Assembly (NCBI GenBank): GCA_946222995.1
Contig: CAMIOS010000009.1
Location: 9,480 to 73,479 of the forward strand
Length of the DNA stretch: 64,000 bases
Source of the DNA: an uncultured Enhydrobacter sp.
GTDB taxonomy: Bacteria; Pseudomonadota; Gammaproteobacteria; Pseudomonadales; Moraxellaceae
Direction: 5' to 3'
The notes beneath the pieces were generated by a model, which saw only the letters and a list, made by a program, of their open reading frames with translations, did no database searches and was not told the origin of the DNA. Below are positions 4,745-24,047 of this stretch, one piece after another. The position numbers and the translations under genes are program-made. The first letter of the stretch is position 1. Each line of letters starts with the position of its first letter.

Positions 4745-5233
4745 TTGATGAATGATTTTGGCAAACGGGAAATTTATATAGACCTAATTAAAGAAAAACA
4801 ATCGACAATAACCATTTCTATTTATCTCGCTAGTTTATTGTTGATTGTTTTTATAGGGTTTTTTATGGTTGATGAAGCCCGATTTCTTTTAGGAATGATT
4901 TTTTGTGCTGGATTGACAGGATTGATGGGGATTTGGATTAGCTTTTTTAATAGTCAAAAAAACTATCAATCAATACCTTATTTAACACTTGATGAAAACG
5001 GCTTCACCCTTAATCAAAATGGTTTAATTAATTTTATATATTGGCAAGATATTGTTATGATAGATATAAAAATCAAAAATACAACAAATGGACATGAAAC
5101 TTACTACGCTATCGAAACTGCTAATCAAGAATATATTTTAAGTCAAGGTAAATTAAGTGCTAACTTTGAGGAAACGTGGATTTTGTTAAAACGCTATACC
5201 GAACATTACGGCACGGCGAAATTTATTTATTAG
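4745..5233 (+). CDS. Small membrane protein (2 predicted TM helices plus a C-terminal soluble domain), orphan/accessory
   Basis: 162-aa ORF abutting the ubiE stop (TTG/ATG start). Markedly AT-rich compared with its neighbours. Hydrophobic segments LASLLLIVFIGFFMV and FCAGLTGLMGIWISFF. Confidence 0.5.
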   Translation: MMNDFGKREIYIDLIKEKQSTITISIYLASLLLIVFIGFFMVDEARFLLGMIFCAGLTGLMGIWISFFNSQKNYQSIPYLTLDENGFTLNQNGLINFIYWQDIVMIDIKIKNTTNGHETYYAIETANQEYILSQGKLSANFEETWILLKRYTEHYGTAKFIY

Positions 5234-19092: not shown

Positions 19093-20078
19093 TTAGCTTC
19101 TTCATGCAATTTTTTGATATACGCCACTTCATTTTTTGCCCCTAAAACCACTGGCACACGCTGATGGATATTGGTCGGCTCAATGTCTAAAATTCGATTG
19201 ACCGCATCGGTACTTGAACCGCCTGCTTGCTCGATAATTAAACTCATCGGATTGGCTTCATACATCAGACGTAACTTACCCGCTTTTTTCGGGTCTTTGG
19301 TATCAAACGGATAAGTAAACACGCCACCTCGAATCAAAATACGATGTACATCGCCCACCATCGCCGCTACCCAACGCATATTAAAGTTTTTGCCGCGTAC
19401 GCCTTCTTTACCCGCATTGCACTCATCAAAATAGCGCTGCATAGGGGCAAGCCAATGACGGTAATTTGACGCATTAATCGCATATTCTTTGGTATCGGCA
19501 TCGATTTTGACCGCATCATTAATCAAAATAAATTGGTGCATATTGGGGTCATAGCTAAACATCACCACGCCTTCACCGGTGGTCAAAACCAACATGGTTG
19601 ACGTACCGTATAAAATATAGCCAGCTGCGAGCTGCTGAGTCCCTTTTTGCAAAAAGTCATTATCCGTGGCGGTTTGACCTGGGTTGTTATACGGTAAAAT
19701 TGAGAAAATTGTACCGACTGACATATTAATATCAATATTGCTTGAGCCGTCTAATGGGTCAAACAGTACCAACACTTCGCCATCTTTGTTGGCAGGGGTG
19801 GCATTGTCGAGTTCTTCAGATGCCACGCCCGCACAGTATTTATTCATGCTTAACGCTTCAAGCAGCAGGTCGTTGGCGATGACGTCTAATTTTTTTTGTT
19901 CTTCACCTTGTACATTTTCATTGCCTGCTTCGCCCAAGATATCGGCGAGTGCCCCACGTTTAAGCAGTTCGCTGATTTCTTCGCCGACTTTGGTGATGGT
20001 CGCGATGACGCTTTTGACCGCAGGCGTGGTGTTGTGTTCAAATAGATAGTCTTTGAGTGTGGTAACGTGGATAAACAT
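19089..20078 (-). CDS. fbp: Fructose-1,6-bisphosphatase class 1
   Basis: Aligns with E. coli Fbp from [20 protein letters not shown] upstream of that ATG. The ORF-track start at 20135 is probably too long. Confidence 0.9.
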
Positions 20079-20237
20079 GAGATTTCCTTGTTGTAGCTGT
20101 TTTTGTGATGGGTTGTTAGGTGAAAATACTTGCAAGTGATTGTAGCATGTTTTGGGGTGGTTGTTGATAGGGCGGATTTTGATGTTTAAAAAGTTGATTT
20201 GGGTTAAAATAACAACAAATTTAAAAGGATAAAAAAA

Positions 20238-21293
20238 ATGAATATCTTAACCACCCAAACCCTGTCCAATGAAGAGCACAAAAACAAACTTGACCAAGCT
20301 ATGGCAAAGCCAGAACGCACAGGCGAAAATGGCATTCGTCACTTTATCGGTGTTGAAGGGCTAACGAAAGCCCAACTGATGGCAATTATTGAAAAAGCGA
20401 ACGGTTATCTTACTGATAATACTTCTGGCAATGACGACCGCCCCAACAGCATTAAAAATAGCGATGAATTGAGCGGTTGCACCGTGATGAATTTGTTTTT
20501 TGAAAATTCTACCCGCACCCGCACCACCTTTGAAGTCGCCGCCAAACGCCTTGGGGCAAATGTCGTGAGCCTTGATATCGCCAAATCTAGCACCTCAAAA
20601 GGCGAAAGCTTGCGGGACACGCTGTGGAACTTAGAAGCCATGACCGCCGATATCTTTGTGGTGCGTCACTCATCCAGTGGTGCCGCTCATTTTATGGCGA
20701 CCGAAGTCACGCCCAATATCGCCATCATCAACGGCGGTGATGGCTGGCACGCCCATCCGACCCAAGCTATGCTTGATATGCTCACCATTTACCGTGAAGC
20801 GGGCAAGCGGTTTGAGGACTTAAGTGTGGCGATTATCGGCGATATCAAGCACAGCCGTGTCGCTCGCTCGGACATCGCCGCCTTGCAGATTTTGGGCTGT
20901 CAAGATATCCGTGTCATCGCCCCGAAAACCTTGCTACCCAAAGGGATTGAACGTTATGGTGTGAGCGTGTATCACGATATTGATCAAGGCGTGAAAGACT
21001 GTGATGTGATTATCGGCTTACGCATTCAAAATGAGCGGATTGGCTCGCCGTTACTGCCCTCAACGAGCGAGTATTTTAAGGCGTATGGTATCACCCCCGA
21101 ACGCCTTGCCTTGGCAAAACCAGATGCGTTGGTGATGCACCCAGGACCCATGAATCGGGGCGTAGAAATCGCCTCAAGCGTGGCAGATGGCGAGCAATCG
21201 GTGATTTTAAAGCAGGTCAATAATGGCATTGCGGTGCGAATGGCAGTGCTCGCCATGGCGATGGATGGGCAACGACAGGCGAGAGCGAATTAA
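20238..21293 (+). CDS. pyrB: Aspartate carbamoyltransferase catalytic subunit
   Basis: STRTR carbamoyl-phosphate motif, HPTQ, and HPGP...NRG. Confidence 0.9.
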
Positions 21294-21308
21294 AGTTAAG
21301 GGAAAAAT

Positions 21309-21527
21309 ATGACGACGATAACTTTACAATTACCTGATAGCCTTGTGAATCAAGCCAAACAAGCAGGTATTTATAATGAAAAAACGCTTGCTGATAAAGT
21401 GCATGAATTTTTGGCATGGCAACTTAATCAAAACACTGCAAACAATCGAAATCAGTCATCGGTATATGACTTTGTCATGAGTTTACCAAAGGCAGAATAT
21501 GTGGATGATGGGTTGCAGATTCAGTAA
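21309..21527 (+). CDS. Putative ribbon-helix-helix (CopG/VapB-like) antitoxin
   Basis: 72 aa. N-terminus MTTITLQLPDSLVNQAKQ has the RHH beta-strand pattern. Lies 15 nt upstream of a PIN-domain ORF. Confidence 0.45.
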   Translation: MTTITLQLPDSLVNQAKQAGIYNEKTLADKVHEFLAWQLNQNTANNRNQSSVYDFVMSLPKAEYVDDGLQIQ

Positions 21528-21541
21528 GGTATGCGAGATGA

Positions 21542-21919
21542 ATGGAAATGTACTTATTAAACACCAATTTTGTAATTAATTTACAAAAACAAAATCAAGC
21601 GGAACTTCAATTTCTGCTTAATCATCAAGTGGATTTTGCTGATTGTGCGATTAGTGTGATTACGAAACTTGAGATTTTGGGATTTGCAGGTCAGTCTGCA
21701 CAAGAAAAAACGAACATGGCGTTGTTGATTTCAAGGTTTGCGTGTTATGAATTGACCAGCGATATTCAAGAAAAAACGATTGACATTCGAGAACAGCGAA
21801 AAATTAAATTGCCTGATGCGATTATTTTGGCAACGGCTTTGGTTAAGGGTAAAAGATTGGTGACGGCTGACCAAAAATTGCAGTCGGCTCATCAGCAGTT
21901 TTTTGGCAATTTATCGTAG
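21542..21919 (+). CDS. PIN-domain (VapC-like) protein, putative toxin. First catalytic Asp replaced by Asn.
   Basis: MYLLNTNFVI, ...ITKLEIL..., ...LPDAIILATAL..., ...VTADQK... follow the four PIN acidic-residue positions, but position 1 is N (LLNTN instead of LLDTN). Confidence 0.55.
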   Translation: MEMYLLNTNFVINLQKQNQAELQFLLNHQVDFADCAISVITKLEILGFAGQSAQEKTNMALLISRFACYELTSDIQEKTIDIREQRKIKLPDAIILATALVKGKRLVTADQKLQSAHQQFFGNLS

Positions 21920-22055
21920 GACTTTTTATAGAAGGCGAAAATATCGAATCGCTAAAGAATGGTTTGGCAAAGCCTGTGATAGTGCCGACCAAGTAAGCTG
22001 TGATATTTACGGCATATTAAACCAACAAGGTTATTAAAATTAAAAAAGGCAAAAT

Positions 22056-23213
22056 ATGAAAAACTACCTCCCCAAGGGCTGGCAATTTGACACCACCCAA
22101 CTTCCCACAGACACCGAAGGCAAATGGCTATTCCCACCCCTTGTCGATTTATGTGCCCGCCTCCGAGAACCAGGTCACCAATCCCACGGCACACTCAAAT
22201 CCGAAGGCACCTCCGCCCGCCAAAACGGCTTTTTACACGTCGTCATGCCACCCGACACCCAGCCCGTGTTAGAAAATGGCTCACTCCTAGCGGGCTTGCG
22301 AGAACGAGCCTATCAAGATGGCGGAATTTGTCTGCATCTACTCGGCGCGATGACCGCAGGACTAGAGGGCGAAAAACCCGCCAATATGCTAGGTCTCAAG
22401 CAAGGCGGGGCAATCGGCGTAAGTAACGCCCGCCACGGCTTTGCCAATGATGATGTCCTGTTGCAAGCCCTTGAATATGCCGCTACTTTTGGCATTAAAG
22501 TGTTTTTTTATCCCGACGAGCCGACGTTATCCAAAAACGGGGTCGCCCACGACGGCTATATTGCAAGCTATCACGGCTTGGCAGGGATACCGTGGATCGC
22601 TGAAACGGTGGCTTTATCAAAACAGCTACTCATCGTTGAAGAAACAGGCGTATCGGCTCACTTTAGCCAGCTTACCACCAAATCATCCATTGACCTGATG
22701 CGTTGGGCAAAACAAAAAGGTTTGCCTGTCACCTGTGATGTCGCCATGCACCAACTGCACTTGACTGATGATGCCTTGATTGGCTTTAACTCGCTTGCCT
22801 ATGTATTACCGCCGTTACGCAGTAATACCGACAAAAAAGCCCTGCTCGAAGGATTGCAAGATGGTACGATTGATGCGATTTGTAGCCATCACGAACCCCT
22901 TGCCAAAACCGCCAAACAAGCCCCGTTTGCCGAGTGTAAAGCAGGGATTAGCAACTTTGATACCTTTATGGGATTGGGCTGTGAATTGGTAAGAAATGGC
23001 GTTTTGACGGCCGAACAACTGGTGGAAAAAGTCTGTCTAAACCCTGCCAACATTGCCGGCATTACAGAAATTTATCAACAAAAAGGCGGTGCGGTGCTGA
23101 TCGACCCGAATTTAACCTGGACAGTCAGCAAAGACAGCATGCTATCACAAGGTAAAAATACGCCGTTTATCAATAGCGAATTGACAGGTAAGATCGAAAA
23201 CGTATTTTTCTAA
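22056..23213 (+). CDS. Dihydroorotase-like protein PyrC' (non-catalytic ATCase-associated subunit)
   Basis: Amidohydrolase fold downstream of pyrB. The DxHxH Zn motif is replaced by DLCARLREPG, as in Pseudomonas PyrC'. Confidence 0.8.
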   Translation: MKNYLPKGWQFDTTQLPTDTEGKWLFPPLVDLCARLREPGHQSHGTLKSEGTSARQNGFLHVVMPPDTQPVLENGSLLAGLRERAYQDGGICLHLLGAMTAGLEGEKPANMLGLKQGGAIGVSNARHGFANDDVLLQALEYAATFGIKVFFYPDEPTLSKNGVAHDGYIASYHGLAGIPWIAETVALSKQLLIVEETGVSAHFSQLTTKSSIDLMRWAKQKGLPVTCDVAMHQLHLTDDALIGFNSLAYVLPPLRSNTDKKALLEGLQDGTIDAICSHHEPLAKTAKQAPFAECKAGISNFDTFMGLGCELVRNGVLTAEQLVEKVCLNPANIAGITEIYQQKGGAVLIDPNLTWTVSKDSMLSQGKNTPFINSELTGKIENVFF

Positions 23214-23217
23214 TTCT

Positions 23218-23249
23218 AAAAAAAGCGACACAAAATGGGTCGCTTTTTT
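23218..23249. terminator. Rho-independent terminator after pyrC'
   Basis: AAAAAGCGAC-ACAAAATGG-GTCGCTTTTTT. Confidence 0.75.
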
Positions 23250-23261
23250 GAAAAATTGGCA

Positions 23262-23386
23262 TTATTTTTGTTGGGTAGCAGCAGATTTTGTGGTGTCAAC
23301 ATGCCGGTGTTTATGCCCGCCACAAGCGTACCTTATCGATGATAATGCCACACTGCTAGCAATAAGAGTAACAATCAATTTTTTCA
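23262..23386 (-). CDS. Candidate small secreted/His-rich peptide (41 aa). Unannotated sORF.
   Basis: MKKLIVTLIASSVALSSIRYACGGHKHRHVDTTKSAATQQK: signal-peptide-like N-terminus followed by a His-rich segment. Below the ORF-track size cutoff. Confidence 0.25.
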
Positions 23387-23525
23387 TAATGACCTCGAGT
23401 CATAACAGTAAAGGTTAAGTAATTGAATGTCTATTGTACGCTATTTTAGCGCAAGTAGGCGAACGTTAATTTTATTAAGCCAAATTTTTTAACACGTTTT
23501 ATCTTTTATCAGTTAGGATATTGTT

Positions 23526-24047
23526 TTGTCTATTTTTCATTCATCGATACCGCCATCTCATGTTGAGCCAAAATCCGCAAGCCGACCCAATCAGTCAATT
23601 ATTTTGGTATCGGTTTATGAGATTATCAAAGGCGGATTTGCGCTAATTTTTGCCTTAATGGTTTTTTTGTGGCATGACAAATTGCCGTCTTTGGTCGCAC
23701 AATTTACCTATATTTTGCATCAGTTGCTTGGCTCGTTACTTGCCGCGCAAATTGATAATTTGAACCATTTGGCAAGTGTGGCAAATAGCAATTGGCAAAA
23801 GGCGTTTGCGATGGTGGTAGGCTATGCGCTTTTGCGGTTTATTGAGGCGTATGGCTTATATAAAGATAAAACGTGGGCGTATTGGTATAGCGTGTTAGGC
23901 TATGCGATTTTTGTACCGGTTGAGTTATATTATTTGGTGGTAAAGCCGTTTGATTGGGTACATTTGGCAGTATTTTTATTTAATTTGGTGGTGGTGGTAA
24001 TTGTGTACCGCAATATGCAGCAAAAAGGGCTGATCGGAAGCGCGTGA
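23526..24047 (+). CDS. DUF2127-like membrane protein. The true start is probably the TTG near 23592.
   Basis: YEIIKGGFALIFALMVFL... matches the typical DUF2127 N-terminus, with 4 TM. The start codon is uncertain. Confidence 0.5.
   Translation: MSIFHSSIPPSHVEPKSASRPNQSIILVSVYEIIKGGFALIFALMVFLWHDKLPSLVAQFTYILHQLLGSLLAAQIDNLNHLASVANSNWQKAFAMVVGYALLRFIEAYGLYKDKTWAYWYSVLGYAIFVPVELYYLVVKPFDWVHLAVFLFNLVVVVIVYRNMQQKGLIGSA

Follow-up and report, generated by a model that had tools for sequence, protein, structure and literature searches.

The pyrB and pyrC' genes, which encode the catalytic chain of aspartate carbamoyltransferase (ATCase) and a dihydroorotase-like protein, are separated by an AT-rich 762-bp segment (positions 21294-22055) in a 64,000-nucleotide stretch of DNA from an uncultured Enhydrobacter species of the Moraxellaceae (contig CAMIOS010000009.1; the whole stretch is hereafter called the window). 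Our analysis favors a model, which we consider probable, whereby this segment is a chromosomal toxin-antitoxin cassette of the VapBC type that has long resided between the two genes and is decaying in this species, with a lesion in the toxin followed by truncation of the antitoxin and loss of a neighboring Sel1-repeat gene. The cassette is of a known kind, and its copy in the window is probably a relic rather than a working addiction module.

A VapC-type PIN gene and its cognate antitoxin

Four genes lie on the plus strand in the order pyrB (20238-21293), a 72-amino-acid (aa) open reading frame (ORF; 21309-21527), a 125-aa ORF (21542-21919) and the 385-aa dihydroorotase-like gene (22056-23213), and the two small same-strand ORFs between pyrB and pyrC' are as a preliminary description of this DNA had placed them. 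The second ORF encodes a VapC-type PIN protein, as had been proposed: it matched Pfam PF01850 with 39.9 bits (gathering score 23.6; E=7.7e-10), and its best sequence match in PDB was chain 7by2_B, 'Ribonuclease VapC' (phmmer E=1.5e-10). An AlphaFold2 model built from a 38-sequence alignment had a predicted local distance difference test (pLDDT) score of 93.8, and its top 25 Foldseek matches in PDB were all VapC, FitB or archaeal PIN-domain protein chains, with 7by2_B matching at E=3.5e-7, a TM score of 0.78 and 31% identity. Because the close homologues are all 119-123 aa long and begin at the second Met, position 21548 (123 aa) is the likely start of the PIN gene. The protein reached neither of the equivalog models for tRNA(fMet)-specific VapC (NF047863, 23.2 bits with a cutoff of 140; NF010285, 12.2 bits with a cutoff of 143), its orthologues score 20-25 bits on the tRNA(fMet)-specific VapC model, and PADLOC returned no match for either product of the pair.

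The first ORF is the cognate antitoxin of the PIN protein. A homologous small ORF lies upstream of every related PIN gene, with orthologues of 76-83 aa, and this conserved partnership upholds the toxin-antitoxin pairing suggested earlier. In relatives the two genes overlap by 1-13 nucleotides (nt), whereas in the window the 72-aa ORF ends before the PIN start, by 14 nt if the ATG at 21542 is used and by 20 nt if the one at 21548 is; the 15 nt given previously differs trivially from these values. The antitoxin fold is probably ribbon-helix-helix (RHH). The ORF had no significant match in Pfam or NCBIfam and none to an RHH model of Pfam; it scored 17.1 bits (E=0.0076) on Pfam DUF6364, below the cutoff of 27.3, and DUF6364 is matched by 11 of the 17 members of the antitoxin family (best E=1.2e-6), a consistent but weak family-level signal. 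A search of PDB sequences with the antitoxin profile gave no significant match and four sub-threshold ones, including the CopG-family RHH protein 9kkd_A (E=0.69) and 7by2_A (E=0.83). The latter is the partner chain of 7by2_B, the best PDB match of the PIN protein, and its sub-threshold alignment with the antitoxin begins at residue 1 and takes in the β-strand and the region of helix 1. The AlphaFold2 model of the antitoxin (17-sequence alignment; pLDDT 62.6), which is too poor for a fold search, has an extended N-terminus followed by two helices and is compatible with RHH. The earlier label of RHH-like is thus plausible rather than demonstrated, given the sub-threshold DUF6364 and CopG/RHH matches and the lack of an RHH match in Pfam.

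A profile search of 1.84 billion representative proteins revealed that the antitoxin is modular. Its N-domain of about 45 residues, MTTITxQLPDELvxxAKqaGvfNE..L...FL, is common to small proteins with other C-terminal tails, and its C-terminal module, vYDFvMxLPkA.Y..DGL.IQ..LRdEW, is also found behind unrelated N-domains. The features of the segment and its flanks, all on the plus strand, are as follows.

20238-21293, plus strand: pyrB, ATCase catalytic chain, the upstream flank of the slot (NCBIfam NF002032, 382 bits; Pfam OTCace_N and OTCace).
21294-21308, plus strand: spacer of 15 nt with the antitoxin ribosome-binding site AAGGGA; the junction is equally tight in relatives.
21309-21527, plus strand: antitoxin gene, truncated allele, 72 aa, in which an N-terminal DUF6364/RHH-like domain (approximately residues 1-45) precedes what is left of the toxin-binding module, its first half (SVYDFVMSLPKAEYVDDGLQIQ).
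21525-21527, plus strand: premature TAA stop in the antitoxin gene, CAA (Gln) in the sister allele.
21528-21560, plus strand: former 3' end of the antitoxin gene (GMRDEWKCTY and stop), now untranslated; it contains the codons of the conserved RDEW tail and shares 13 nt with the start of the PIN gene.
21548-21919, plus strand: PIN-domain (VapC-family) toxin gene, 123 aa (Pfam PF01850, PDB 7by2_B, AlphaFold2 and Foldseek), with an alternative ATG at 21542.
21560-21562, plus strand: codon AAC, which places Asn5 where the PIN active site has its first catalytic Asp (alignment of homologues).
21920-22055, plus strand: remains of a Sel1-repeat gene, then the pyrC' ribosome-binding site (tblastn with Sel1 proteins from the equivalent slot; junction comparison).
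22056-23213, plus strand: pyrC', dihydroorotase-like, presumably an inactive ATCase partner, the downstream flank of the slot (NCBIfam scores; 385 aa; HxH replaced by C-A-R).

Lesions in the toxin, the antitoxin and a Sel1-repeat gene

The PIN protein of the window lacks one of the four acidic residues of a VapC active site: its first position is Asn5 (AAC), and the orthologues of other lineages have Asp there. The N-terminus reads MYLLNTNF in the window and LLDTNF in homologues. In a 107-sequence alignment, position 5 is Asp in 97 of the 99 full-length homologues, with Asn only in the window and a 98%-identical relative, and the codon is GAC or GAT at loci L083, L087, L097 and L101. The RKIKLPDAIILATA core is preserved, as are the three remaining acidic residues; E42 and D90 are invariant (107/107 sequences), and D108, as read from the window sequence alone, lies within an LVTAD motif. 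Substitutions D6A and E43A abolish growth inhibition by NTHi VapC1, the D6A protein being poorly expressed (PMC4229260), and the engineered Shigella VapC D7N (5ED0) was among the best structural matches of the PIN model in Foldseek. By analogy with the D6A, D7A and D7N mutants, Asn5 should abolish or cripple metal-dependent RNA cleavage, and the PIN protein of the window is probably catalytically dead or crippled and would no longer be toxic.

The second lesion is a nonsense codon in the antitoxin gene. The window and L081, a contig of the same species, are 99% identical over 846 bases (21230-22075), and their antitoxin genes differ solely in TAA versus CAA at 21525-21527, so that read-through translation of the window gene yields the 83-aa L081 protein. 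The CAA-to-TAA change removes the conserved ...LRDEW tail. Orthologous antitoxins, namely those of L083, M. bovis, L097, L101, L098 and L104, end in ...LR(D/N)EW, as do distant ones with other N-domains. In other lineages (L083, L087) the antitoxin stop directly follows ...DEW, as a TGA or TAA that overlaps the PIN ATG (GAATGGTGATG, GAATGGTAATG); in the window's species this stop has turned into AAA (GAATGGAAATG, 21543-21550), which adds four residues (KCTY) to the full-length allele and gives rise to a further ATG at 21542, ahead of the likely PIN start. Solved complexes of Shigella VapBC and Neisseria FitAB have an Arg near the C-terminus of the antitoxin that plugs the acidic active site of the toxin: VapB Arg64 and FitA Arg68 insert into it and contact Asp7, Glu42 and Asp98 (PMC3384007). 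The Arg of the LRDEW tail may, by analogy, be the corresponding plug.

The two lesions differ in their distribution. All seven contigs of the window's species carry AAC; five carry the TAA stop (the window and L093-L096) and two carry CAA (L081, L082), and the TAA contigs other than the window come from different samples and assemblers (ERZ501005, SRR33524912, ERZ25964914 and SRR29763468). Since AAC is present in every contig and TAA in only five of the seven, the toxin lesion is probably the older. The toxin active site was thus probably lost first and the antitoxin truncated second, the truncation being still polymorphic, although recombination or recurrent mutation could give the same pattern. 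Loss of the toxin before the antitoxin is the viable order, as theory predicts.

A third gene has left a remnant in the 136 bp between the PIN gene and pyrC'. The last 29 codons and the stop of a Sel1-repeat gene are found at 21948-22037 (IAKEWFGKACDSADQVSCDIYGILNQQGY and stop), with tblastn matches to the slot Sel1 proteins of L085, L003 (M. osloensis FLMOS1), L013 (M. catarrhalis), L022 and L017 at E=2e-14 to 7e-8 and 46-72% identity. The former ribosome-binding-site region of this gene is recognizable, its ATG has become ATC and, relative to L085, about 135 nt have been deleted internally.

Occupancy of the pyrB-pyrC' slot in relatives

We scanned PyrC' relatives in one genome per species and took the 80 closest loci, ranked by PyrC' similarity (99 further loci were left out); both pyrB and pyrC' lie on the contig in 77 of the 80. 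The nearest PyrC' is that of M. osloensis, with 87% amino-acid identity, so that the window derives from a related species not represented among the genomes scanned. The preliminary description regarded the pair as inserted between pyrB and pyrC', and a comparison of gaps bears this out in one respect: none of these 77 loci, those of M. osloensis and Psychrobacter with gaps of 55-125 nt included, has the antitoxin-PIN pair between the two genes. The same pair nevertheless stands at the same slot, with 65-77% identity, in M. bovis, in a lineage that branches at the base of Psychrobacter and in two further lineages of uncultured members of the Moraxella group. Overall, the cassette is found at the same pyrB junction in at least five diverged lineages of the Moraxella/Psychrobacter group, and the closest PIN homologues traced to contigs are all at this address down to 65% identity. 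In each of the following the pair comes directly after pyrB.

L081 and L082, same species as the window: PIN 98% identical.
L083-L086, uncultured relative: PIN 77% and PyrC' 88% identical.
L097, base of the Psychrobacter branch: PIN 65% and PyrC' 75% identical.
L087-L092, complete genomes of M. bovis (CP087823, CP030241): PIN 69%, PyrC' 67% and PyrB 72% identical.
L104, M. bovis-like contig.

The junctions are uniformly tight, the antitoxin gene starting 9-16 nt past the pyrB stop (9 nt for M. bovis and L104, 15 nt for the window and L083, 16 nt for L097), and in L097 the PIN stop is only 13 nt before pyrC'. The order pyrB-antitoxin-PIN-Sel1-pyrC' is found both in the M. osloensis-like clade (L085) and in the M. 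bovis-like clade (L104, L087-L092). In a PyrC' tree, cassette-bearing lineages fall in three deep branches, with the window and L083 forming a grade that leads to M. osloensis, which is without the pair. Relative to orthologous cassettes in the same slot, the window antitoxin is 57-72% identical and the PIN protein 65-77%, and in no pair of lineages does the cassette clearly exceed its flanking genes in identity, the nearest approach being the PIN of M. bovis in the list above; cassette and flanks have diverged roughly in step. The long-term ratio of nonsynonymous to synonymous substitution rates (dN/dS) is 0.13-0.28; deeper comparisons are saturated, with dS undefined.

A plasmid search found no relative above 44% identity, and a scan of metagenome contigs for the PIN gene re-found only the L097 contig. 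More distant PIN relatives reside elsewhere, at 53% identity between a sufB/D-like gene and sufC and at 41% identity beside a threonine dehydratase gene. In the former case (L101:373-1004 and L102), the accompanying antitoxin shares only the C-terminal ...LPKADYGDDAVNIQRQMRDEW module, and the pair again lies inside a functionally coupled operon. The empty slot of M. osloensis is a 56-nt gap in which ATTTAGCGAAAAAAATGACAAAG survives, a sequence that is similar to the ribosome-binding site and initial codons of the antitoxin gene and continues directly into the ribosome-binding-site region of pyrC'; this looks like a deletion scar, although the low complexity of the sequence makes the resemblance no more than suggestive. 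The same 56-nt gap was seen in L002 (BMPS01000002.1, 113337-122494), which is titled 'Streptomyces cinereus JCM 3040' and has pyrB and pyrC' products 86-87% identical in amino acids to those of the window; this assembly looks contaminated or mislabelled.

The simplest reading of these comparisons is that the cassette settled in the slot long ago and has since been lost many times over, rather than having been newly inserted in this lineage alone, and we infer vertical descent rather than slot-specific exchange. Under our model, lineages with an intact copy have a standard module of the VapBC type, whose antitoxin would form dimers via its N-domain and clamp the PIN nuclease by a tail of aromatic residues and arginine. 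The pair, together with the downstream Sel1 gene, would have been in the slot since before the divergence of the Moraxella and Psychrobacter groups, or would have been exchanged only through the slot, and most lineages would then have lost it by deletion. In the window's species, the first catalytic Asp of the toxin would have changed to Asn and become fixed in all sampled contigs; in a subset of strains that includes the window, the nonsense codon would next have removed the Arg-containing tail of the antitoxin, and the adjacent Sel1 gene would have been reduced to its 3' stump. With the toxin dead or crippled, the antitoxin would be dispensable, and the segment would be a transcribed relic that lengthens the spacer between pyrB and pyrC', with pyrC' keeping its own ribosome-binding site.

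Transcription and flanking genes

A distance of 9-16 nt after pyrB leaves almost no room for a promoter of the cassette's own, and a crude consensus scan found no promoter- or terminator-like site on the plus strand between pyrB and pyrC'. The cassette is therefore probably transcribed with pyrB and pyrC', most likely by read-through from the pyrB promoter, and the co-transcription presumed in the preliminary description is plausible. An Rfam search over 19900-23600 gave chance-level matches only, with no PyrR-type leader and no other RNA element. We also noted a perfect 10-nt inverted repeat (ATGGCGAGCA / TGCTCGCCAT; 21187-21196 and 21247-21256, with 50 nt between the arms) within the 3'-terminal part of pyrB, shortly before the cassette.

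The flanks form a pair of an ATCase chain followed by a dihydroorotase (DHOase) homologue without the metal-binding HxH motif. PyrB scores 382 bits on the NCBIfam ATCase equivalog NF002032 (cutoff 263). The pyrC' product falls below the cutoffs of all DHOase equivalogs in NCBIfam, its best models giving 347 and 332 bits against cutoffs of 644 and 442. Active dihydroorotases carry a D-x-H-x-H metal motif, the PROSITE DHOase signature; at this position the pyrC' product reads VDLCARLREPG, in which HxH is replaced by C-A-R. It is thus presumably an inactive, dihydroorotase-like ATCase partner, which fits the earlier designation, and a complex of ATCase with such a pseudo-DHOase has been described in Pseudomonas (PMC7053772). 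An N-terminal truncation of pyrC' by the insertion, suspected when the NCBIfam models aligned only from profile position 46, was rejected: all 80 relatives are about 385 aa long and aligned from residue 1.

Weighing the alternatives

Several observations weigh against decay of an old resident. Some natural VapCs tolerate Asn at the fourth acidic position (PMC4229260), although here it occupies the first. The truncated antitoxin retains the aromatic YDF...DGL segment and possibly still binds the toxin. Apart from the lesions described, neither ORF is interrupted or frameshifted in any of the seven contigs, and the two alleles differ by only a few bases; ongoing selection on a modified function may account for this. 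The scan for promoters and terminators was, as stated, a crude one. The distribution is patchy, with the pair missing from every one of the nearest representatives, so that a vertical scenario needs many independent losses. Finally, between the window and L083, dS is 0.67-1.0 in the cassette and thus lower than in pyrB and pyrC' (about 1.8), which could reflect later lateral exchange through homologous flanks or an artefact of composition. These bacteria are naturally transformable.

Some of these points would also fit a module that has been rewired, in which the Asn5 PIN protein is an attenuated nuclease or an RNA- or protein-binding factor, the short antitoxin is mainly a DNA-binding regulator and both are expressed with pyrB and pyrC' in a pyrimidine-responsive manner. 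Both frames are intact in seven of seven contigs from independent samples, the PIN protein is 98-100% conserved between alleles and has kept its remaining acidic residues and core, and some VapCs found in nature likewise have one Asn in their acidic tetrad (PMC4229260). Moreover, the cassette stays in the operon across deep lineages, with spacings as tight as the 16 and 13 nt of L097, a hint of selection for its location. However, most lineages lost the cassette without replacement, of the acidic positions it is the most conserved one that has changed to Asn, the species varies too little for selection to be measured within it, and no evidence links VapBC to pyrimidine regulation. We regard such rewiring as possible but unlikely.

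Slightly less likely still is a view in line with the preliminary description, under which a vapBC module that works in addiction or stress would have entered this lineage lately by horizontal transfer and lodged between pyrB and pyrC'. Base composition speaks for it, since the G+C content of the segment, 0.362, is lower than that of pyrB (0.507) and pyrC' (0.498), as had been noted, and than that of the whole window (0.437); only 3.2% of 762-bp windows have a content as low or lower. The pyrB and pyrC' flanks are themselves unusually GC-rich, and the cassette is AT-rich relative to both the flanks and the window average. A recent arrival is also favored by the absence of the pair from all 77 nearest representatives, among them M. 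osloensis as the closest species with a name, and by the dS between the window and L083, which is lower for the cassette than for its flanks. In addition, an imperfect 15-nt direct repeat (AAGGGAAAAATATGA / AAAGGCAAAATATGA; 21298-21312 and 22045-22059) brackets the segment exactly, but its copies are the ribosome-binding-site and ATG regions of the antitoxin gene and pyrC'; such bracketing repeats could have mediated the deletions seen in M. osloensis. No inverted terminal repeats bracket 21294-22055, the 15-nt repeat is the only one that does so, and the ORF list of the segment includes no transposase, integrase or other recombinase; the segment thus lacks the marks of an insertion borne by an IS, an integron cassette or a genomic islet. 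No tRNA genes were found in the window, so the cassette is not on a tRNA-linked island. Recent acquisition is further opposed by the lack of a close plasmid copy and by the presence of the same pair at the same junction in five diverged lineages, with divergence at least equal to that of host genes except for the near-tie with M. bovis. The catalytic Asp-to-Asn change and the nonsense-truncated antitoxin speak against a working module, and the Sel1 stump indicates a slot that is losing genes, not gaining them.

More speculatively, and in our judgment improbably, the cassette may have been kept in the operon for a reason: an intact toxin would couple RNA cleavage and growth arrest to nucleotide supply via the pyrimidine-regulated pyrB promoter, and the copy in the window would be a domesticated, non-lethal RNA-binding or regulatory pair. 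If this were true, the PIN cassette of L101 between the sufB/D-like gene and sufC would point to a family specialized in residing inside essential operons. Sequencing or assembly errors in an otherwise intact module can be dismissed almost entirely. Each lesion is indeed a single-base substitution, but neither is a homopolymer indel; four contigs besides that of the window, obtained from different samples and with different assemblers, share the TAA, and the AAC is common to all seven, including the two with CAA.

The slot as a site for accessory genes

In Moraxella sensu stricto the pyrB-pyrC' gap is 0.7-2.5 kb and usually holds at least one secreted Sel1-repeat protein gene, and M. osloensis strain FLMOS1 (L003) has kept a Sel1 gene in the slot. 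Other occupants were also observed. Two uncultured Moraxella loci (L019:2372-3068 and L028:1555-2257) have a HepT-like NTase_sub_bind protein (E=2.4e-34) and a small MNT-type nucleotidyltransferase (E=1.3e-11) upstream of their Sel1 genes. SMI1/KNR4 (SUKH-1) proteins, which are typical immunity-type proteins, occur in the slot at L017:2768-3409 and L021:3362-3997, and the latter locus also encodes a 327-aa multi-pass membrane protein without a family match (L021:2268-3251). In M. bovis, where the slot contains antitoxin, PIN, Uma2, Sel1 and Sel1 genes in that order, the Uma2-family endonuclease gene (L087:5375-5917 in CP087823, also in L088) starts 2 nt after the PIN stop and matches the PADLOC candidate defence family PDC-S03 (E=7.7e-25). 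The gap thus serves as a recurrent parking slot in Moraxella, for Sel1-repeat genes, HepT/MNT-like pairs, SMI1/KNR4 and Uma2, which is relevant to annotation and strain typing.

Elsewhere in the window, a 162-aa ORF with a TTG start (4745-5233, plus strand) has a G+C content of 0.294, the lowest by a wide margin among the large ORFs of the window (mean 0.449, standard deviation 0.033); its product looks like a small membrane protein, and the gene may be of foreign origin.

Comparison with known systems

Toxin-antitoxin modules are normally regarded as highly mobile, and a pair that holds one operon-internal address across genus-level divergence is unusual among them. We regard the cassette not as a new system but mainly as a clean natural example, apparently caught midway, of a toxin-antitoxin pair that decays step by step in the order expected. 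Annotations should mark the antitoxin encoded by the 72-aa ORF as truncated and should record the active-site substitution of the PIN gene.

The cassettes of M. bovis, L083/L085, L097 and L104 share the slot, the gene order and the pyrB junction with that of the window, and the M. bovis orthologue is already known under the NCBI name 'type II toxin-antitoxin system VapC family toxin'. Unlike the window copy, these cassettes keep the catalytic Asp, the ...LR(D/N)EW tail and the overlap between antitoxin and toxin genes, and the M. bovis slot further differs in its extra Uma2 endonuclease gene and full-length Sel1 genes. As in the Pseudomonas-type pyrB-pyrC' operon (PMC7053772), the catalytic pyrB precedes a dihydroorotase-like gene without the metal-binding HxH; in contrast to the direct adjacency of M. 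osloensis and Psychrobacter, here and in most Moraxella sensu stricto accessory genes occupy 0.7-2.5 kb between the two.

Among characterized modules, the VapBC of Klebsiella pneumoniae (PDB 7BY2/7BY3; 'Ribonuclease VapC' and 'CopG family transcriptional regulator') gave the best sequence and fold match to the PIN protein and is likewise a two-gene module with the antitoxin first. It differs from the cassette of the window, whose antitoxin match to it is not significant, whose C-terminal module (...YDF..LP...DGL.IQ..LRDEW) has no detectable counterpart there, and whose toxin carries Asn in place of the first catalytic Asp while its antitoxin is cut short. Shigella flexneri VapBC/MvpAT (3TND; VapC D7N 5ED0 and D7A 5ECW) and Neisseria FitAB (2H1C/2BSQ) share the PIN fold, with TM scores of 0.72-0.78; the window PIN protein is only about 20% identical to theirs, and the N-domain of Shigella VapB is of the AbrB type, not the RHH type. 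Whereas these modules are plasmid-borne or stand alone, the cassette of the window lies inside a biosynthetic operon, and its natural Asn5 is the same substitution as that of the Shigella VapC D7N made in the laboratory and crystallized.

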